A DNA stretch of 64,000 nucleotides from Botryllus schlosseri. Its lineage: Eukaryota. The notes beneath the pieces are model-generated. The model ran no database searches. It saw only the letters and a list, made by a program, of their open reading frames with translations, and was not told the origin of the DNA. The stretch is from contig CM119371.1 in assembly GCA_051294905.1 (NCBI GenBank), forward strand, positions 26,538,001 to 26,602,000. The letters run 5' to 3'. The position numbers and the translations under genes were made by a program. Of the stretch, positions 2,097 through 60,058 are shown piece after piece; position 1 is the first letter of the stretch, and each line of letters begins with the position of its first letter.

Positions 2097-3391
2097 CAGA
2101 GGTGGTCAAAGTAGTCAAGAAAGCTACTCAAGTAGAAAAGTAGCGACGTAAAAATCTACTCAAGTACGAGTAGAAGTACTTCTTTCATATGCAGCCTAAA
2201 ACTACTTGATATTGAAGTAGAATTGACCGACTTTAAATCTACTCAAGTAAGTAAGTAGTTGTGAAAACGATCATAATTCGTTCGCATGGATTGTCAAAAC
2301 GTGCAAATTGAGCTATGCGAAAAGTGCCGAGCTTGATTCATATTGATGCATACCAGGAGGTATCAAATTTTCTACAGCATCAGCATTCGTGCGCATCATG
2401 GGATGAAAATGATAGTATTGATATGGAAATGCGATACTAATCCTCTGTTTACTCGAACAGCACGCTTTAGAAAATATCATGGTTTGGCGCCCTCCCTCAT
2501 ATTATAAGGCCCGTAGTTTAGTCGAAGAGTAATGCAGAGAAGTTGTATAGGATACGGTGTAAACACTTTGCGCGATTAGTAAACGTTGATAAAAATATGG
2601 TGGATCGAAAAATGTCATTTAGTGTAGCTTTATTTCCAGAAATTATAAAGGCATTACTACACTTGCTTTTATGCTTCAACATGTATGTTATCCAAACAAA
2701 AGAACTGATATTAATTAGAACTGAAAGTATAGGATACTGCAAATATAAAGTGAAATATAAATAATACTTCTAAAAGCGGAATATGTATTTCATGTCTTTA
2801 GTCCAGAAAGTTTTAAAGGTGGTATGACAAAACAGCTCTAAAACTAAAAAAAAAGTCAGAGTCCACTTTTCCAGACTAGGACACGCCATGGACTTTTAGA
2901 TTACGATATGATAAGTGAATGCTAGATTGCGAAACATCAGTTTCAAACGTTATGATGAGCTTATATATACTGTGATGAAATATTTCATATGGAGGAAGGA
3001 CGACAATGCAGTGTGAACGGAACCACGTCAACCCGCTACCTAAATTATACTTACCGATACTTTCGTGAAATCATACTGGTAACTGCGCATCCACTGCGCG
3101 CGAAGCGCGACGAAAATTTTGAGCTTTACTCAACTTTTTTGAAAATTAATTGTTGATACTCCGTGAAAACGGCCCCGAAATTCCTCAGGCTATCTTCCTG
3201 ATTGGAGGATTAAACTACTTCTACTTGACAAACTGAAAATAGCGAAAAGTTAGTAAGTAGATGACAGTAGATATTAGGAAGTAGAAGTAGAAGTAGCGTA
3301 AATTAGATCTACTTGAGTAAGTACCAGAAGTAGAGGGAAACTACTTGAGTACTTCGAAAAATTACAAGTACTTCGTTACTGACCACCTCTG
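2097..3391. mobile_element. hAT-like MITE with CAGAGGTGGTCA TIRs
   Basis: 12-bp TIRs; perfect 8-bp TSD TATGATAC; CTACTCAAGTA subterminal motifs. Confidence 0.9.
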
Positions 3392-3558
3392 TATGATACC
3401 CGATTCGCTTGAATATTTTGATAAGGTTTTGATCAAGTCGCAGAACTAGAACTACTGAATTTTCAAAATCTGCAACTACAACTAGAACTACTCAATTCTC
3501 AAAACCCGTAACTACACCTACGCTTAGTCAATTTTTAAAATCGCAACTAGAACTAGAT

Positions 3559-5040
3559 CAGAGGTCTCAAACACGCGGCCCGCGGGCCGCATGCGGCCCT
3601 CGAGGACATTTTGTGCGGCCCGCGAAGGCATTTTGGAATTTCAAATATTCGACAATATATTCATGTGTCATATATCTTTTTTAGATTTAAGGACTTAAAG
3701 TACACTCTAACACGACTACAAAAACACATCACTTCTAAAATCTAAAGCATGTCCCGTTGATGATCCGTGACTAAAAATTTTGATTTTGTTTGGTGAGACC
3801 TTTCGTCAAATTACTCGATTTTGGATTGTCTGGGGGATAAACTAAAAATTACTCGAGCTGAGTTAGGTCAAGCTTTAAAATCAGAGAAATATCGACTTGC
3901 GTATCGGAATAGTGACTTGGTAATCATAAGGACGCAACAATCTATGAAAATGTCATGGGGAATAGTAATATATCAAAATCCCGTAGCTTGCGTTGCGAAG
4001 GGTATATAGATATATAATCAGGTGTGTAAGAAAACCATTGGCATTCTGTGGTCTCCGTGACGTATATTTGGTTACATCATGGGTGTTGTTTGTTCTCTTT
4101 ATCCGTGTTATTATCGGTGGCGAGTAAAGTAGTAGTACGCTCCACTGCTGTAAAACCAATGGATTCTTCGGCGATTGCTCATGTATATTCCTGGGATTCT
4201 TAACCAGGGGTCCCTAGCCCCACTCGTGATTTGAACCACCACATCAGAGGGTACGAGATGCATTGTGGATATAGGCGTGTATGCTGTGGAATATTTTGTG
4301 GTCTAATTTATTCAACTGGAAAATATCCTTTGCGCTACGCGCGATTTTATGTGAATGGGCTTTCTGATTTTTATATATGTACCATCAGAAATTGTGTTGA
4401 AAATGGACAGGGGGCATAGAAATCTTATTGAAATCACAAGCGATACGATCAATTAAAAGGTTAAGAAACAATGCTATTACTATGGCACAATACTGATTAT
4501 ATCTAATTTGTTATTGATCTGTTCAAATACTAATCAGAGAGAACGTAACGCTGGTTTAATTTGACTTTGGCAATGACAGTAACAATAGCCTACTTATCAC
4601 GACTATATCAGAAACCCCGATTTGGCTACATCGCTCACATGCTCTGATATCAGATCAATATTTAGTAAATTCTAAAATATTCTACGTGAAATTGTGGCAC
4701 GTCAAAGGTCCGCTAGCTGCAATATTATAACCCGACAGCTTTTACGATGTCATTATGCGTCCTCTCGCGTGATGTCTATAACTCATGTTAACAAATTATT
4801 TACAAAAATATTTTATTCAGATATTTGAAAATGTGATTTTTTCGTGCCAAGCGTGACTATATAGTTTAGTAGTAAATTACATTTGCGAGGTGTTTGTAGA
4901 ATGCCTGTCTGCAAGGTGCCGTCAAATGAAGCCTACTCGGATAATATATATTGAATACCCCTATTATTGATGCTGCGGCCCGCGGCGTCATCAAAAATTA
5001 GGAAATTGGCCCACTATCACATTAGAGTTTGAGACCTCTG
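3559..5040. mobile_element. hAT (Charlie/Buster-like) MITE, CAGAGGTCTCAAAC TIRs
   Basis: 14-bp TIRs; TSD AACTAGAT/TACTAGAT; GCGGCCCGC subterminal motifs; contains a degenerate ~280-bp element at ~4191-4473. Confidence 0.85.
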
Positions 5041-17854: not shown

Positions 17855-18603
17855 TTACGGTACCGAAAACGTCCACCATACCGTCAGACATTGCGATCAT
17901 TTTGAGTTGAATTAATTCTCGTTCTCTGGTAGTGTTACCATATGTCCTCCTTTAGGAGGATTTGATCTTCATTTTATGGAAATCGAAAATGTTCTTCTAG
18001 GTCGTTTAAGTATTCTCACTTCTGGAAATTCGTATTGGACAGCAAGGCTAATGGTCATGATCAACTGCAAATCGCAATACATTATGTGAAATACACAATG
18101 CGGACATTGCGGAGGGGTTAATTCTGGAGTCGAATCGGAGTGATGAGCTTTTTTTAGTTAACACAACAAGATTTAGATTTACAGCAAATATTTCAAAATC
18201 AGCTGTTATTGATTTCGGTAAACTTTATTTTTTACTATGATTAACGTAGACCCTACCCTTCTTTCCTGATCCCAAAGTATGGTATCCGTATTATATAGCC
18301 AAGTGAAATTTCCCTGGAGAAGGCGGAAACACATAAACAACGCTACCGTTACGCTGTCAACTGTAGGCTACCGCGTCATCATATCTACAGGAACTCATTT
18401 ACGACTTCTGACAAGTTTCCAGACTTTGTGTGTTGGAAGAGAGTTGAACTAAAGAAGCGTGTTCATGCAAATATAGCTCAATAATCATGTCAATGGAATC
18501 AACAGCAATAGACGTTTGGCGCTGATCTAATTTGTACATTCAATAATGCGGGGTCAGGTATTTGTGGTTCTATTTCGCAGCTACACAAATGCGTGCAAAA
18601 CCT

Positions 18604-19771: not shown

Positions 19772-20429
19772 CAGTAGGGGTATTAAAAGATGACTTTATT
19801 TCTCAAGTTGTACTGGCTACTCGATAAAATTGTTAGGTTTCCCAATTTAAGCCAACACACCAAATTTGGTTCAATTCCAGCCAGTAGCCGCATTGCTACA
19901 GGAGAACAAAGTTTCTATTTAATATATAAAACAAAATTTTCTGTTCACCTCATTAAAGTGTAAGGTTGTCTATAGAAATGATGTTCACCAAATTTGGTTC
20001 AATTCCAACTAGTGAATGCGGTGTTATTGCCGTCGAAACGTTTGGATTATCAATAAAATAGTATTTACGGTTTTTACGACCAATTCTTTAAATATTTAAT
20101 ATATGTGTACCCACCGTAAATACTATTTTATTCAAATCCAAATTTTTTGACGGCAATAAATCAGCTTCCACTGGTTGGAATTGAACCAAATTTGGTGAAC
20201 ATCGTTTTTATAGACAACCTAACACTATCATGGGGTGTAATAAAAATTTTGAAATTTTTTGTAATTTATTTTTATATAATAAATAGAAACTTTGCTCTCC
20301 TGTAGCAATGCGGCTACTGGCTGGAATTGAACCGAATTTGGTGTGTAGGCCTAAATTACGTAACCTAACAATTTTATCGAGTAGCCAGTACGATTTGAGA
20401 AAACAAGGTCATTTTTGAAGACCCCAGTG
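19772..20429. mobile_element. Tc1/mariner-like fold-back MITE
   Basis: TA TSD (paralogous empty site GCCGTGTACAG at ~40907); CA...TG termini; ~300-bp inverted arms around a ~40-bp centre. Confidence 0.85.
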
Positions 20430-36764: not shown

Positions 36765-37775
36765 GTTTTTTGTATTATTTCGAATGCAAAGTTTATTACA
36801 CAGATTAAAACTCTCCCTTCACCGTCGCATGTGGTCTGCTGACCAACTGCAATGTCCACGACTATCCGCATAACTCCAATCAACGCGTAGGCAGTCAATC
36901 TATTTCACGTGCCATTCCCAGCGGCTGGGGCACCACTAATCATGGGCTACCCAATAACGCGCATTTCGAATAATCTTCATAGCTATTATTTGTTATTATT
37001 GATTCCATATACTAGTATGTTTCGCGATTTTGACAGCGGAAATAGATGTCCTTCGATGACCCACTTGCTAGATCGGTGCTCTTTATCGCCGTCAATGATC
37101 CTATCCATATAGGTCTAGGGCACTAACGAGTTTTAGTTTATATCAAATAGGCTATTCTTCATTGACAATATTTGTTTTTTTCGATTGCCTATATATGGCG
37201 GCATGCGTGATTTTAACAGTGAATATCAACAATACTTCGATAGCACAGCTGATAAGCATTGGCTCCCCAACTTTTCACGAAAATTCACGAAACGCACACA
37301 TGCCACTTTCAAATCACTGACTTGGGAATAAAATAACAACCTGCAACTTAGTCCTATGGGCATACAGATACACAAAATACACAACAGGGATTTTCTAATT
37401 ATCGTTGTTGACATTCCCAGCCGCCGTCATAGCTTGATAGCTGATTGGTTCACGCCCTCAAGGAATTTTCTCTATTTCTAATGTTATCCACTTTTGACAT
37501 GTAACATATTCATTAGCGAAGCTATGAATGAGCTTTTATTTTTAGCATGTCTTTGCCAATCTGACGGTGAAGGGTCAGTGCGTCACCAACCACGAATCTC
37601 ACATCAAGTCAACTGCCATAAACATTCATTGAATAATCCGATATTAGAACCCCAAATAGACATACATTCGGAAATGTGCTTTCTCAACTTCATTGGATAC
37701 TCGAAATGAATATAAAAAATACAGATAACTTATTCATTTACTGTAGTAACTTGCTGAGCCGTATCCCTTCACCTT

Positions 37776-41054: not shown

Positions 41055-41145
41055 TCCTTCCAGCCGGATTCCAACTTGCGACTTATAGATATCGGGTCTA
41101 ATTGCTCTTCAGTCCACCACTCTACCAACTGAGCTATATCGCAGC
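41055..41145 (-). pseudogene. tRNA-Tyr pseudogene (anticodon GAA)
   Basis: B box and acceptor mutated; 2-nt insertion. Confidence 0.8.
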
Positions 41146-41588
41146 GAGCTGATGTAACATGAGTAGGCTATATGACTCAGCATGATGAACTGCAAATGAA
41201 TAAGATATGTTTTTTACTGTTCATTTCGTGTATCCAATGAAGTTGAGAAGTTGAGCAAGCACATCCCTGGATGTATGTCTATTTTCTGTTTCAATATCGG
41301 TTTGTTCAATGAATGTTCATGGCAGTTGACGTGAGGTGAGATTCATGGTTGGTAAGGCACTGAGCCTTTACGGTCATATTAGCAAATGTATGCCAAGAAT
41401 GACAGCTCATTCATAGTACCGCTATTGATTATGTACATGTTACATGATAAAAGTGGATATCAATAAAAAACAGAGAATATTCCTTGAAGACGTGATCCAG
41501 CCTGCTATCCAGCTATGAATAACGTTGATAACGGTTACTACATTTTCATACATTCCCAAAAATTATTTCGACTGCGAACAAATTTCTG

Positions 41589-42484: not shown

Positions 42485-42579
42485 TGCTCCAGGCGATGCT
42501 CGAACTCGCAGCCTCCGCATGTCTCCGTGTCTGTCGTATAAGTAGGCTACGGCGCGCTAACCGATTGCGCCACTGGAGC
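42485..42579 (-). pseudogene. tRNA-Ile(TAT) with 5-nt insertion in the anticodon stem
   Basis: AGTACGG changed to AGTAGGCTACGG at 42543-42549; C61>A. Confidence 0.85.
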
Positions 42580-43840
42580 TACGGAGGGGCTGATGCGAAC
42601 CACTAAAACCTAATGTAGGTACGTGAACCCGATGAGACTTCACAATGCCCATTTCATCAGAAATAATTTATTGACTGTGACCCTGTTAGCAAAAGATATT
42701 GCCGGAGATGTAGATTTGTAGATGTGTCACTCGTGAAGACTTTACGTAAGCAATATTTTCTAAAACGATATAGTACTGTTCTCTTCAACCATTTTCGGTC
42801 GTGGTACACCCTTCTAACTTTTATTCGAAACTCGTAGACTCCTGACCACATAAAACGCTGATTTCGTAGTAAGTCTTATCCAGAGGTGTTCAACCTTTTC
42901 GTAATTCACGGCGATTTTCGATTAGGTGTATAGCATACATCCACCATGGCAGCTCGATGTCATATACTCACGATAAATTACCTACTGGAAACTTGGCCCC
43001 GAGGACAGCCCTTGCTTATAAAAGTCTTTAACTGTGCCGGAGGCTAACTATATCCAGGCCCAAAAATCGGGTTTTTTCAAAAATTTGAATAAAATTGTTT
43101 TTGTGTCGGGCATAATTTTTATATTTAATGAGTTATAGACATCATACGAGTGGGTGAATCATGACATGGTAAAACTGTCGGGTTACAATATTGCAGCTAG
43201 TGGAACTTTGTCGTGCCACAATTTTATGTAGAATAGTTTAAACTCTATAGTGAAGATTGACATGATATCAGAGCATTTGAGCAGTGTAGTCTAATCATGG
43301 TTTTGATATAGTCTTGATAAGTATAGGCTATTGTTACTGTCACTGATAAGGTCAAATTAAATCAGCGTTCGATTTTGTCTTCGCTTAATATTGGAAAATA
43401 TCAATGACAACTTAATTATATTCATTATTGAGCCATAGTAATAGCTTTGCTCTTTAGCCTTATAATCGATCGTACCCTATGTGCTTCTAACGAGATTTCT
43501 CGAAGCCTCTGTCCATTTTGAACACAATTTCTGATGGTACCTATATTAAAATCAGAAAACCCATTCACATAAAATCCGGCGCAGTGCCCAGACTATTTTC
43601 CAGTTGAATAAATTGAACAAGAAAATATTCCATAGCATATAGGCTTAATTAGTCTACGGAATCTGGTTAAGAACCCCTGGAATGGACCAGTCCAATCTTC
43701 AGTCCCTACGTGCCCAGCCCATGTTTAGCGTTGCCTCAGCAACTGAAAATTGCACCTCAAATTGATTGATTGCCTAAGTGTTGATTGGAGTTTGGGCGGA
43801 GGACAGTGTAATAAACTTCGCATTCTAAATAATTACGAAC

Positions 43841-43929: not shown

Positions 43930-44168
43930 GTTGTGATGGGACATGGATCAGCAAATTTATACTGCAAATGAATAAGTTATTTTTTTATTTATTTCGAGTA
44001 GGCCTATCTAATGCCAAATGGGGAAATTCGGGCGTTCTCGGAGGACATTTTTGATGTCCTCAAAAATTGGAACAAATCCTCCTGAAGGAGGACATATGGT
44101 AACACTACTATGGATCTAAACTCAAAATGACCGCGATTTCTGACGGTATGGTGTACCTTACACCGTGA

Positions 44169-47889: not shown

Positions 47890-48916
47890 GTTTTTTGTAT
47901 TATTTCGAATGCAAAGTTTATTACAAAGATTAAAACTCACCCTCCACCGTCGCATGTGCTCTGCTGACCAACTGCAGTGTCCACGACTATCCGCCTAACT
48001 CCAATCAACGCGTAGGCAGTCAATCAATTTCACGTACCATTCCCAGCGGCTGGGGCACCACTAAACATGGGCTACGCAATGGGCTACCCAACTGCATTTC
48101 GAATAATCTTCATTGCTATTATTTGTTATTATTAATTCCATATACTAGTATATTTCGCGATTTTGACAGTGGAAATAGATGTCCTTCGATGACCCACTTG
48201 CTCGATCGGTGCTCTCTATATCCGTCAATGATCATATCCATATAGGTCTCGGGCACTAACGAGTTTTAGTTTATTTCAAATAGGCTATTCTTCATTGACA
48301 ATATTTCTTTTTTTCGATTGCCTATATATGGCGGCATGCGTGATTTTAACAGTGAATATCAACAATACTTCGATAGCACAGCTGATAAGCATTGGCTCCC
48401 AAACTTTTCACAAAAATTCACGAAACGCCCACATGCCAATTTCAAATCACTGACTTGGGAATAAAATAACAACCTGCAACTTAGTTCTATGGGTATATTG
48501 TGTTACTGGAAAACACGATACACAACAGGGATTTTCTAATTATCGTTGTTGACAATCCCACCCGCCGTCATAGCTTGATAGCTGATTGGTTCACGCCCTC
48601 AAGGAATTTTCTCTATTTCTAATGTTATCCACTTTTGTCATGTAACATATTCATTAGCGAAGCTATGAATGAGCTTTTATTTTTTGCATGTCTTTGCCAA
48701 TCTGACGGTGAAGGGTCAGTGCCTCACCAACCATGAATCTCACATCACGTCAACTGCCATAAACATTCATTGAATAAAACGATATCGGAACCCCAAATAG
48801 ACATACATTCGGAAATGTGCTGGCTCAACTTCATTGGATACTCGAAATGAATATAAAAAATACAGATACCTTATTCATTTACACTAGTAATTTCCTGAGC
48901 CGTATCCCTTCACCTT

Positions 48917-57206: not shown

Positions 57207-57626
57207 TACGGAGGCTGATGCGGACCACTAAAACCGGATTTGAGTACGTGAGCCCGATGAGACTTCACAATGCCCATTTCATCACAAACAATTTATTGAA
57301 TGAGACCATGTCTGCAAAAGATATTGCCGGTGATGTAGATATGTAGATGTGTCACTGTAGATGTGTCACTCGTGAGTAATTTACGTAAGCAATCTTTCAT
57401 ACGATGATACAATATACCCTAAAAATATTAATCAGCATTCGTCACATACATGTTTCGTCTACACATGAAAGGCGGACATCCGTGTACACTGTACAGTTGT
57501 CCGGCAGATCACATACGACCGTGAAGAGAGGGGTCGGCTTTTGTTGTTGTGTTGCTGTTGCGCCTTTGTGTAAATTTATGTTTTATTCTTCGTAATAAAC
57601 CTCGCACTGTAAATACTGAAAAAAAA

Positions 57627-57717
57627 TCCTTCGAGCCGGATTCCAACTAGCGAAATATGGATATCGGGTCTAATTGTTTTACAGTCCAGCGCTCTACCAA
57701 CTGAGCTAGTTCGAAGC
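57627..57717 (-). pseudogene. tRNA-Tyr pseudogene
   Basis: B box mutated; 2-nt insertion. Confidence 0.8.
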
Positions 57718-57737
57718 GAGCTGATGTAACATGAGTA

Positions 57738-58701
57738 GGGGAGATGTGGTACCGATGGATCACTGGGACCGAGAATACTTGAAAAATTCTCCATGATAAT
57801 TCCATGATTACACTCCGCGAGTTTGTCTACAATGACATGCTGACAGAATCTTTCCTCACATGCAAAATAATTCGACCTGCGTAAGTTATGGGGTCTATGA
57901 CGAATGATTTACGTTTTAGGGGGGGTAAAGTAAATTTGGATCGACATTTGCATTTTTATATATCACCTTTCAGACTAACAAACCCGCCATAATTTTTGAT
58001 ATGAAGTATAGGGCTTGTATCAGAGTATATAACGGCACATATTTTTTTAATCAATACCATCCTCGAGTGGATTATTTTCAAGTCAATTACAATATTTATG
58101 GGGTGGAGGACCTATATGATACGATAGCCAAATCAAGCGAAATAGATGGACCAACTAATTACTTAACAACAGAAACTAGCCTACTTATATATAGGCTGTA
58201 AATCATAGTCCCCTGTGGTGTTTTATCGCTATTACGAGGTATTTGAAAGTCAAAATGTCGATTTGCGGGTAATGTGTATGTGGCATTAATTTTGCAAGTT
58301 TAGGCGTAAATCAAAACATGATTTTATGCTAACATTTGAGTTGATATAATCTATTTTATTCTTGAAGGTCGCGACGAAACATTCTTCATTGGCTTGCTGT
58401 AGCTTAGCTTATAGTACACAACAAAACAAGTTAACAAATTTGAGTTTTTGAGCGTATGTCTCATAGGTCCCATGGTCGTGTGCCATTGGACCCACCGGGT
58501 TGGGACCGATGACACGTTCGAGCAACAAATTTTAAACGTTCATAAATACTTTTTGAAAAGGCGGATATTCATGTAAATGTCCGCGATAGGTAGAGCTTGT
58601 ATCGAAGTGTTGAGACAGCAAAAGATCCACTATTCTCGGCTGAAGATTTGAGGGCCAGAGATCATTTTGCAGTTTTTGATCCATCGGTACCACATCTCCC
58701 C
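57738..58701. mobile_element. 964-bp TA-TSD MITE (GGGGAGATG family), second copy
   Basis: Perfect 25-bp TIRs; TA at 57736-57737 and 58702-58703; empty paralogue at 25669-25670. Confidence 0.93.
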
Positions 58702-59118
58702 TACATGAATCAGTATAATAACCTGCAAATGAATTAGTTATGTTTTATTTTTGTTCATTTTATGTATCCAATGAAGTTGAGGAAGCACATCCCTTAAAGT
58801 ATGTCTATTTTGTGTTTCAAAATCGGTTTGTTCAATGAATGTTCATGGCAGATGACGTGAGGTGAGATTCATGGTCGGTAAGTCACTGACCCTTTACCGT
58901 CAGATTAATAAATGTATGCCAAGAATGACAGCTCATTCATAGCACCGCTATTGATTATGTACCATTATGTTATATGATAGAAGTGGATATCAATAAAAAA
59001 TAGAGAATATTCCTTGAAGACGTGATCCAGCCAGCTATCCAGCTATGAATAACGTTGATAACGGTTACTACATCTGCATACATTCCCAAAAATTATTTCG
59101 ACTGCGAAAAAATTACTG

Positions 59119-60014: not shown

Positions 60015-60058
60015 TGCTCCAGGCGAGGCTCGAACTCGCAGCCTCCGCATGTCTCCGT
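60015..60058 (-). pseudogene. tRNA-Ile(TAT) 3' half, interrupted in the intron
   Basis: Perfect 3' exon and 8 intron bases abut the transposon TIR. Confidence 0.85.

Follow-up and report, generated by a model that had tools for sequence, protein, structure and literature searches.

Does the heptamer TA-GGC-TA at 41164, upstream of a decayed tRNA-Tyr copy, record the departure of a transposon and, if so, of which one? The stretch of Botryllus schlosseri DNA analyzed here, 64,000 nt in length (the window), holds a tRNA cluster with 31 ARAGORN calls (Ser, Thr, Ile and Tyr-derived) between 15467 and 59200. The cluster was assembled by direct and inverted block duplications at 67–93% identity, and many of its copies are decayed. 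The earlier note on this DNA had claimed that a single paralogous site occurs here empty, filled and as TAGGCTA, and all three states are present in the sequence, each beside its own tRNA-Tyr copy:

25669..25670, plus strand: empty site, a single TA; it is the junction of an 8-bp tandem duplication at 25662..25677 and serves as the target
57736..58703: filled site, consisting of TA (57736–7), a 964-bp non-autonomous element (57738–58701) and TA (58702–3)
41164..41170: scarred site, TA-GGC-TA, a 5-nt insertion relative to the empty paralogue
25560..25650, minus strand: tRNA-Tyr copy of the empty unit, degenerate and without an ARAGORN call
41055..41145, minus strand: tRNA-Tyr copy of the scarred unit, degenerate and without an ARAGORN call, with a 2-nt insertion near its 5′ end and an altered B-box region
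57627..57717, minus strand: tRNA-Tyr copy of the filled unit, degenerate and without an ARAGORN call

In each of the three units the TA lies 18 nt 5′ of the degenerate minus-strand tRNA-Tyr copy. Among the other Tyr paralogues, no fewer than 12 are without a TA at the site, and the 8-bp tandem duplication that creates it is private to these three units. Besides the 5-nt insertion, the scarred copy differs from the empty one by a C>T change directly following the scar; in the filled copy, the right flank carries a C>A change. The trio is thereby confirmed as three sequence states, one TA seen with a transposon absent, present and apparently cut out across duplicated units of the tRNA cluster. 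The same three copies form a pseudogene subclade marked by a 2-nt insertion within the tRNA-Tyr body (25639, 41135 and 57709). A second 8-bp tandem duplication near the site, at 41239–41254, is private to the 41164 unit; both this duplication and that at 25662–25677 could have arisen by slippage or been left as footprints by an element that duplicates 8 bp.

The element in the filled unit is 964 bp long, has a perfect terminal inverted repeat (TIR, 25/25) and ends in GGGG…CCCC. A second copy is found elsewhere in the window:

24284..25250: second element copy with its TA duplication (element 24286–25248), TIR 24/25, inside a tRNA-Ile(TAT) gene

The two copies differ at 63 of 962 aligned columns (93% identity), and both show a TA target-site duplication when compared with empty paralogues. 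The 8-bp tandem repeat at the filled site had suggested an 8-bp or 6-bp (hAT-like) duplication. Comparison with intact tRNA-Ile(TAT) paralogues reveals that the second copy duplicates TA alone, and the 3-, 6- and 8-bp readings are therefore ruled out. In agreement, the loose ends of other element copies begin outside the TA in four of four public runs aligned to 57210–59110. The TA duplication, found at both window copies and also flanking a related element described below (L018), and the terminal inverted repeats (25/25 and 24/25) are traits of the ITm (IS630-Tc1-mariner/pogo) group, and the 964-bp element appears to behave like an ITm-type cut-and-paste element. Separately, upstream of a Tyr gene, 19773–20429 is occupied by a palindromic TA-flanked element of ~655 bp with CAGT/CACT-type ends. 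Three tRNA-Ile(TAT) copies have disruptions confined to a short stretch: the element at 24284, a scar at 42543 and, at 60058, another repeat that is also present near 29992.

The element family is abundant, as shown by two of the four public runs, in which summed contig depth, a quantity distinct from copy number, reaches ~1e5–9e5 for the element and 1e1–1e3 for its flanks. The element is also present in runs X5 and X6, with little flank sequence. Among the 30 of 274 aligned rows listed, the filled-unit copy differs from nearly all contigs at 21 or more positions. The 24286 copy carries the family letter at all 21 positions (21/21) at which the 57738 copy deviates; a local hop linking the two window copies is therefore unsupported. 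The 57738 copy is non-coding, with no frame of at least 120 aa, and the scanned frames of either element copy gave no Pfam match. Short, non-coding, TIR-bounded, abundant and homogeneous, the element has the features of a MITE-type non-autonomous DNA transposon. No autonomous partner was found in the window frames scanned or in the metagenome scans. The eight window frames of at least 120 aa include no transposase, and a Pfam scan of 84 frames, 78 from the window (taken from the longest 150 of 207 and lying mostly outside the tRNA units) and six from L018, returned four weak sub-cut-off matches, none to a transposase family. A metagenome scan with a 27-mer of the element gave no matches, and a scan with a 17-mer gave 24 loci, with a partner end in L018 only. 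At 3001–4878 this locus contains a 1874-bp TA-flanked element in G-TA/TA-C context, with the first 12 bases common at both ends. Its subterminal repeats are similar to those of the 964-bp element, its interior is without similarity, and the frames scanned hold no coding region.

If the TAGGCTA copy once held this element, it would be expected to share a more recent ancestor with the filled copy than with the empty one. The earlier note had predicted that 41164 would group with 57736, and this grouping was recovered. With the 17-kb unit as outgroup, the 941 right-flank columns contain 24 informative sites that join the scarred and filled units, four that join filled and empty and three that join scarred and empty (binomial 6e-7). 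A six-row tree of 1000 columns gave 100/100 support for scarred plus filled, and the scarred-plus-empty and filled-plus-empty topologies were rejected (p-AU 8e-7 and 8e-6, respectively). The scarred and filled units are collinear for ~1.35 kb on either side of the site, with p-distances of 9.0% on the left and 6.3% on the right. On these flank alignments, the scarred and filled units are shown to be sisters. The signal is weak close to the site (five versus three versus two sites in the 357-column spacer), which counts against our preferred explanation. With outgroups, the left flank supplies just one or two informative sites per grouping, and two 15-row local trees both left scarred plus filled unseparated from the alternatives among the three units. 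The sequence AACATGAG, which the earlier note had offered as a marker uniting the scarred with the filled copy, did not hold up in this role. Most outgroup Tyr copies carry T at the marker position, and the difference between AACATGAG and AACACGAG is a change private to the empty unit; AACATGAG is thus the ancestral state and says nothing about grouping. Comparison does not distinguish a precise excision from a never-filled site, as discussed in PMC4423477, and precise excision could in principle account for the empty unit. Such a reading is unnecessary because this unit sits in the outgroup position.

We then consider whether the 5-nt insertion is peculiar to this site. TAGGCTA and its mirror form TAGCCTA occur 22 times in the window against 4.41 expected, and TAGGCCTA six times against 0.40 expected; none of 100 shuffles reached either count. 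Ranked among TA-x-TA motifs, the former pair is first of 32 and the latter first of 136. Together the excess amounts to ~23 motifs, or about one per 2.8 kb of window, with inherited duplicates counted in. The GGG/CCC form shows no enrichment, and five longer GGG-containing TA-x-TA forms have no occurrences in the window. Comparison of the 28 motif matches with their paralogues identified seven as insertions arising from six events (26784, 32124, 37148, 41164, 42543, 43999 and 48281), five as same-length look-alikes, eight that are without a paralogue and eight that are ambiguous or unpolarized. The insertions outside the focal site are the following:

26784..26790: TAGGCTA scar, absent from five paralogues
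32124..32137: TAGCCTA insertion adjoining an older TAGGCTA, a repeat hit at one spot
37148..37154: TAGGCTA scar, absent from six paralogues and shared with 48281 as one inherited event
48281..48287: copy of the scar at 37148, made by duplication
42543..42549: TAGGCTA scar interrupting a tRNA-Ile(TAT) paralogue, absent from three paralogues
43999..44006: TAGGCCTA scar, a 6-nt insertion relative to 35910, which passed two insertion screens and missed the strictest filter

The look-alikes at 18364, 23677, 27170, 40011 and 58177 were discarded as scars, being point-mutation variants of the same length, and 5179 was rejected as a decayed scar because its paralogue has no TA there. Three repeat copies differ at one spot, with TAGGCTA at 4586 and TA+TAGGCTA / TAGCCTA+TAGGCTA variants at 32124–32137 and 43322–43330, which suggests serial hits. 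At 18247–18253 a 7-nt insertion yields TA-GACCC-TA where the paralogues have no TA.

An indel survey of 599 paralogue alignments found 5-nt extra sequence in 13 rows, corresponding to 11 sites and 10 events, and five of these 10 events are TAGGCTA/TAGCCTA scars; among the rows with six extra nucleotides, one of 15 is TAGGCCTA. Under a stricter control, GGC/GCC behaved as insertions at seven of 12 testable sites (five events, with 32124 and 32131 being one event counted twice), compared with three of 176 for all other TA-NNN-TA motifs (GGG/CCC 0/5, CAG/CTG 0/3, the rest 3/168). This difference is significant whether sites or events are counted (Fisher 6e-8 and 7e-6, respectively). Insertions of GG/CC (0/9), GC (0/3) and GGCC (0/2) were absent under this control. 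Purine-TA…TA-pyrimidine flanks surround 17 of the 28 scar motifs, at sites that are partly non-independent, against a background of 0.287. Because such insertions recur at other paralogous sites, the change from TA to TAGGCTA, TAGCCTA or TAGGCCTA is, as judged by sequence comparison, a footprint class. Literature searches, whose reach did not extend to Repbase-type catalogues and subscription journals that may list the family, returned no description of this class of scar; the string TAGGCTA is indexed for the abstract of PMC2275977.

Taken together, the grouping of 41164 with 57736 and the recurrence of like insertions at paralogous sites support the proposal that TAGGCTA at 41164 is the excision scar of a GG…CC-ended element. 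The scar is very probably the footprint of a GG-ended, TA-targeting transposon, and the 964-bp element is likely to be the parent of this very common scar. Since an unseen element with GGC…GCC ends would leave the same 7-mer, what ties the scar to the 964-bp element is the site they share and the tree. To the full account, in which one inherited insertion was duplicated and then excised from one copy via 2-nt GG overhangs, we assign a probability of about 0.65. The 8-bp tandem duplication seen here created the G-TA-C target upstream of a tRNA-Tyr copy, and a GGGG…CCCC-ended, TA-duplicating non-autonomous DNA transposon would have entered this TA after the empty lineage had split off. A block of ~2.7 kb was presumably duplicated thereafter, and transposase supplied in trans would have excised the element from the 41164 copy in the germ line. 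The most likely cut position is 2 nt in from either end of the element, so that both flanks would retain a GG-3′ overhang. If end joining filled both overhangs, the product would be TA-GG-CC-TA, and overlap of the terminal Gs as a G·G mismatch would give TA-GGC-TA or TA-GCC-TA, as the scar spectrum suggests. The family of the 964-bp element and related GG-ended families would thus have left the excess scar motifs of the window.

Several lines of evidence bear on this mechanism. Tc1/mariner enzymes are reported to cut the non-transferred strand a few nucleotides inside the element; end joining then converts the resulting 3′ overhangs into footprints made of the first or last 2–4 nt of the element (PMC6943129). 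Footprint types of 2 bp and 3 bp have been distinguished, and mismatch repair is described as non-essential (10.1101/659086). The TA + 2–4 nt + TA form of the scars fits a putative staggered cut a few nucleotides inside the ends. The model with two GG overhangs predicts GGC, GCC and GGCC, the forms seen, and no others. Copying of a single GGGG end would instead leave GGG/CCC or GG/CC, neither of which acts as an insertion here. The related GGGG-ended element of L018 sits in DNA enriched for the same scar motifs, which counts in favor of our explanation: 6 kb of this locus hold five and one motifs, counted as motifs and not scored as insertions, against 0.46 and 0.03 expected, numbers reached by one and nine of 300 shuffles. 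Counting against it, the published canonical ITm footprints (PMC6943129) predict GGG/CCC or GG/CC for such ends rather than GGC, and the scarred copy requires an extra C>T change. Among the 15 of 150 joints listed in four runs, none skips the element, and neither an empty nor a scarred allele of the filled site appears in the rows listed; other copies dominate these rows, and the result is evidence for neither side.

The main competing explanation, which we consider improbable, is an independent hit on the same TA by a different, unseen TA-targeting element with GGC…GCC ends, excised with a Sleeping Beauty-type 3-nt overhang and a central mismatch. This geometry yields exactly TAGGCTA/TAGCCTA (PMC6943129, 10.1101/659086), the forms that outnumber TAGGCCTA 22 to 6. 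A second cut geometry would be required for TAGGCCTA, and the top 30 inverted pairs listed for the 64-kb window include no TA-GGC…GCC-TA element. The hypothesis also requires a second hit on a TA that is filled in the sister copy, with a probability of 0.003–0.07 for two paralogues. At uniform rates, taken from five non-focal events over 2906 paralogue-covered TA sites, an unrelated scar would fall by chance on one or another of six paralogues of a filled TA with a probability of ~0.01, which a 10–20-fold hot spot lifts to 0.10–0.19. Hot spots are plausible given the adjacent hits at 32124–32137, the position of the 42543 scar a few nucleotides from the TA occupied by the second element copy in a different paralogue (24284), and the purine/pyrimidine flank bias. 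Repeat hits are thus present in the window, and Stowaway elements are documented to have inserted independently more than once at a single site (PMC1925063).

Also unlikely is the same insertion of the same element followed by a different cut, with 3-nt GGG overhangs or uneven cuts trimmed to GG+C. Uneven cleavage with varied footprints is reported for Sleeping Beauty (10.1101/659086), a pogo element leaves 0–4 bp (PMC9976928), and Stowaway footprints combine fragments of both ends (PMC1925063). However, no scar here keeps three Gs or Cs from one end, as reflected in the zero of five testable GGG/CCC insertions and the absence of the five longer forms.

We regard as quite unlikely two independent insertions of GGGG-ended elements at a favored G-TA-C in the sister copies, one retained and one excised. 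The flank preference of the scar motifs agrees with such targeting, and the perfect TIRs together with a divergence of 2.2–6.5% would allow the insertion to postdate the duplication. The filled element has at least 21 private changes in 964 positions (2.2%), with 63/962 as the upper bound, and the flank branch of the filled copy has 14 changes in 357 (3.9%, CI 2.2–6.5%); the probability that perfect TIRs would be retained is 0.08–0.22. These dates are compatible with either order of insertion and duplication, and the same age window also fits a single insertion just before the duplication, which is more parsimonious. The source family of the scar would in either case stay the same. Ordinary 5-nt slippage or repair that resembles a footprint by chance is very unlikely: these paralogues often differ by short indels and tandem duplications, and five motif sites are point-mutation look-alikes, but GGC is not copied from adjacent sequence, and one motif pair makes up five of the 10 five-base events whereas control motifs insert at three of 176 sites.

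Inherited insertion followed by excision remains the reading we prefer, and the event type itself is ordinary, excision footprints and empty/filled/excised trios being already known. What the locus adds is a mechanistic origin for a very frequent short motif, with a candidate parent at the same site and with a G-run terminus that lets the scar spectrum discriminate between models of cut and repair. The events also disable tRNA genes here: the element sits in one tRNA-Ile copy and a scar in another. As a tentative extension, to which we would give somewhat less than even odds, TAGGCTA, TAGCCTA and TAGGCCTA may be fossil traces of germ-line excision events of GGGG-ended (Fot-like) elements in several animal groups, and the commonest 5-base insertion in such genomes. 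If so, the G-run ends of the parent would show that footprints can form through 2-nt overhangs and a one-base mismatched overlap instead of one-end copying, and the motif could be used to count and date past transposition and as a phylogenetic marker.

Zator elements duplicate a 3-bp TWA target. The 3-bp flanks differ between the two sides at both element copies, and Zator was set aside on this ground. PIF/Harbinger, with its 3-bp TWA duplication (PMC4482050), was set aside for the same mismatch. ISL2EU elements of the PHIS superfamily resemble the 964-bp element in their GG termini, 2-bp duplication and occurrence in animals, but they duplicate AT within A|AT|T targets (PMC4482050), unlike the TA found at both window copies. 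Within the ITm-like elements, the 964-bp element is possibly a Fot-like pogo, a candidate family suggested by its termini; transposases of this group have a DDE_1 domain, about DD35D, and cluster with Fot. Fot-like pogo elements include GG(G)-ended ones with TA duplications, one of them being GGGG-ended in Entamoeba, a resemblance that is not exclusive to them and serves as a lead (PMC7386202). The source tabulates 50 Fot-like elements with TA duplications (PMC7386202, supplementary file 3), and GG(G) termini with a TA, TAA or TAAA duplication, the Fot-like trait, are found in the 964-bp element. Its TIR of 25 bp compares with the 40–60 bp usual in this group, in which several listed rows have 24–26 bp, and none of the rows listed starts with its end sequence (PMC7386202).

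The scars themselves share with the canonical Tc1/mariner footprints (TACAGTA/TACTGTA for Sleeping Beauty and TACATA/TATGTA for Tc3) a TA duplicated around 2–4 nt of end sequence and two mirror forms that differ in the middle base (PMC6943129, 10.1101/659086). Those footprints consist of one element end, whereas GGC, GCC and GGCC must join bases of both GGGG…CCCC ends. Elements ending in CAG cannot reveal this difference. The scars are also very uniform compared with rice excisions, which mostly carry deletions or filler, with eight of 94 perfect (PMC4423477). A close parallel is provided by the Stowaway MITEs of Triticeae, for which empty, filled and footprinted states are placed on a tree, with fragments of both ends and repeat insertions, as here (PMC1925063). 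The Stowaway trios are orthologous sites, whereas the trio described here is formed by paralogues within one animal tRNA cluster.
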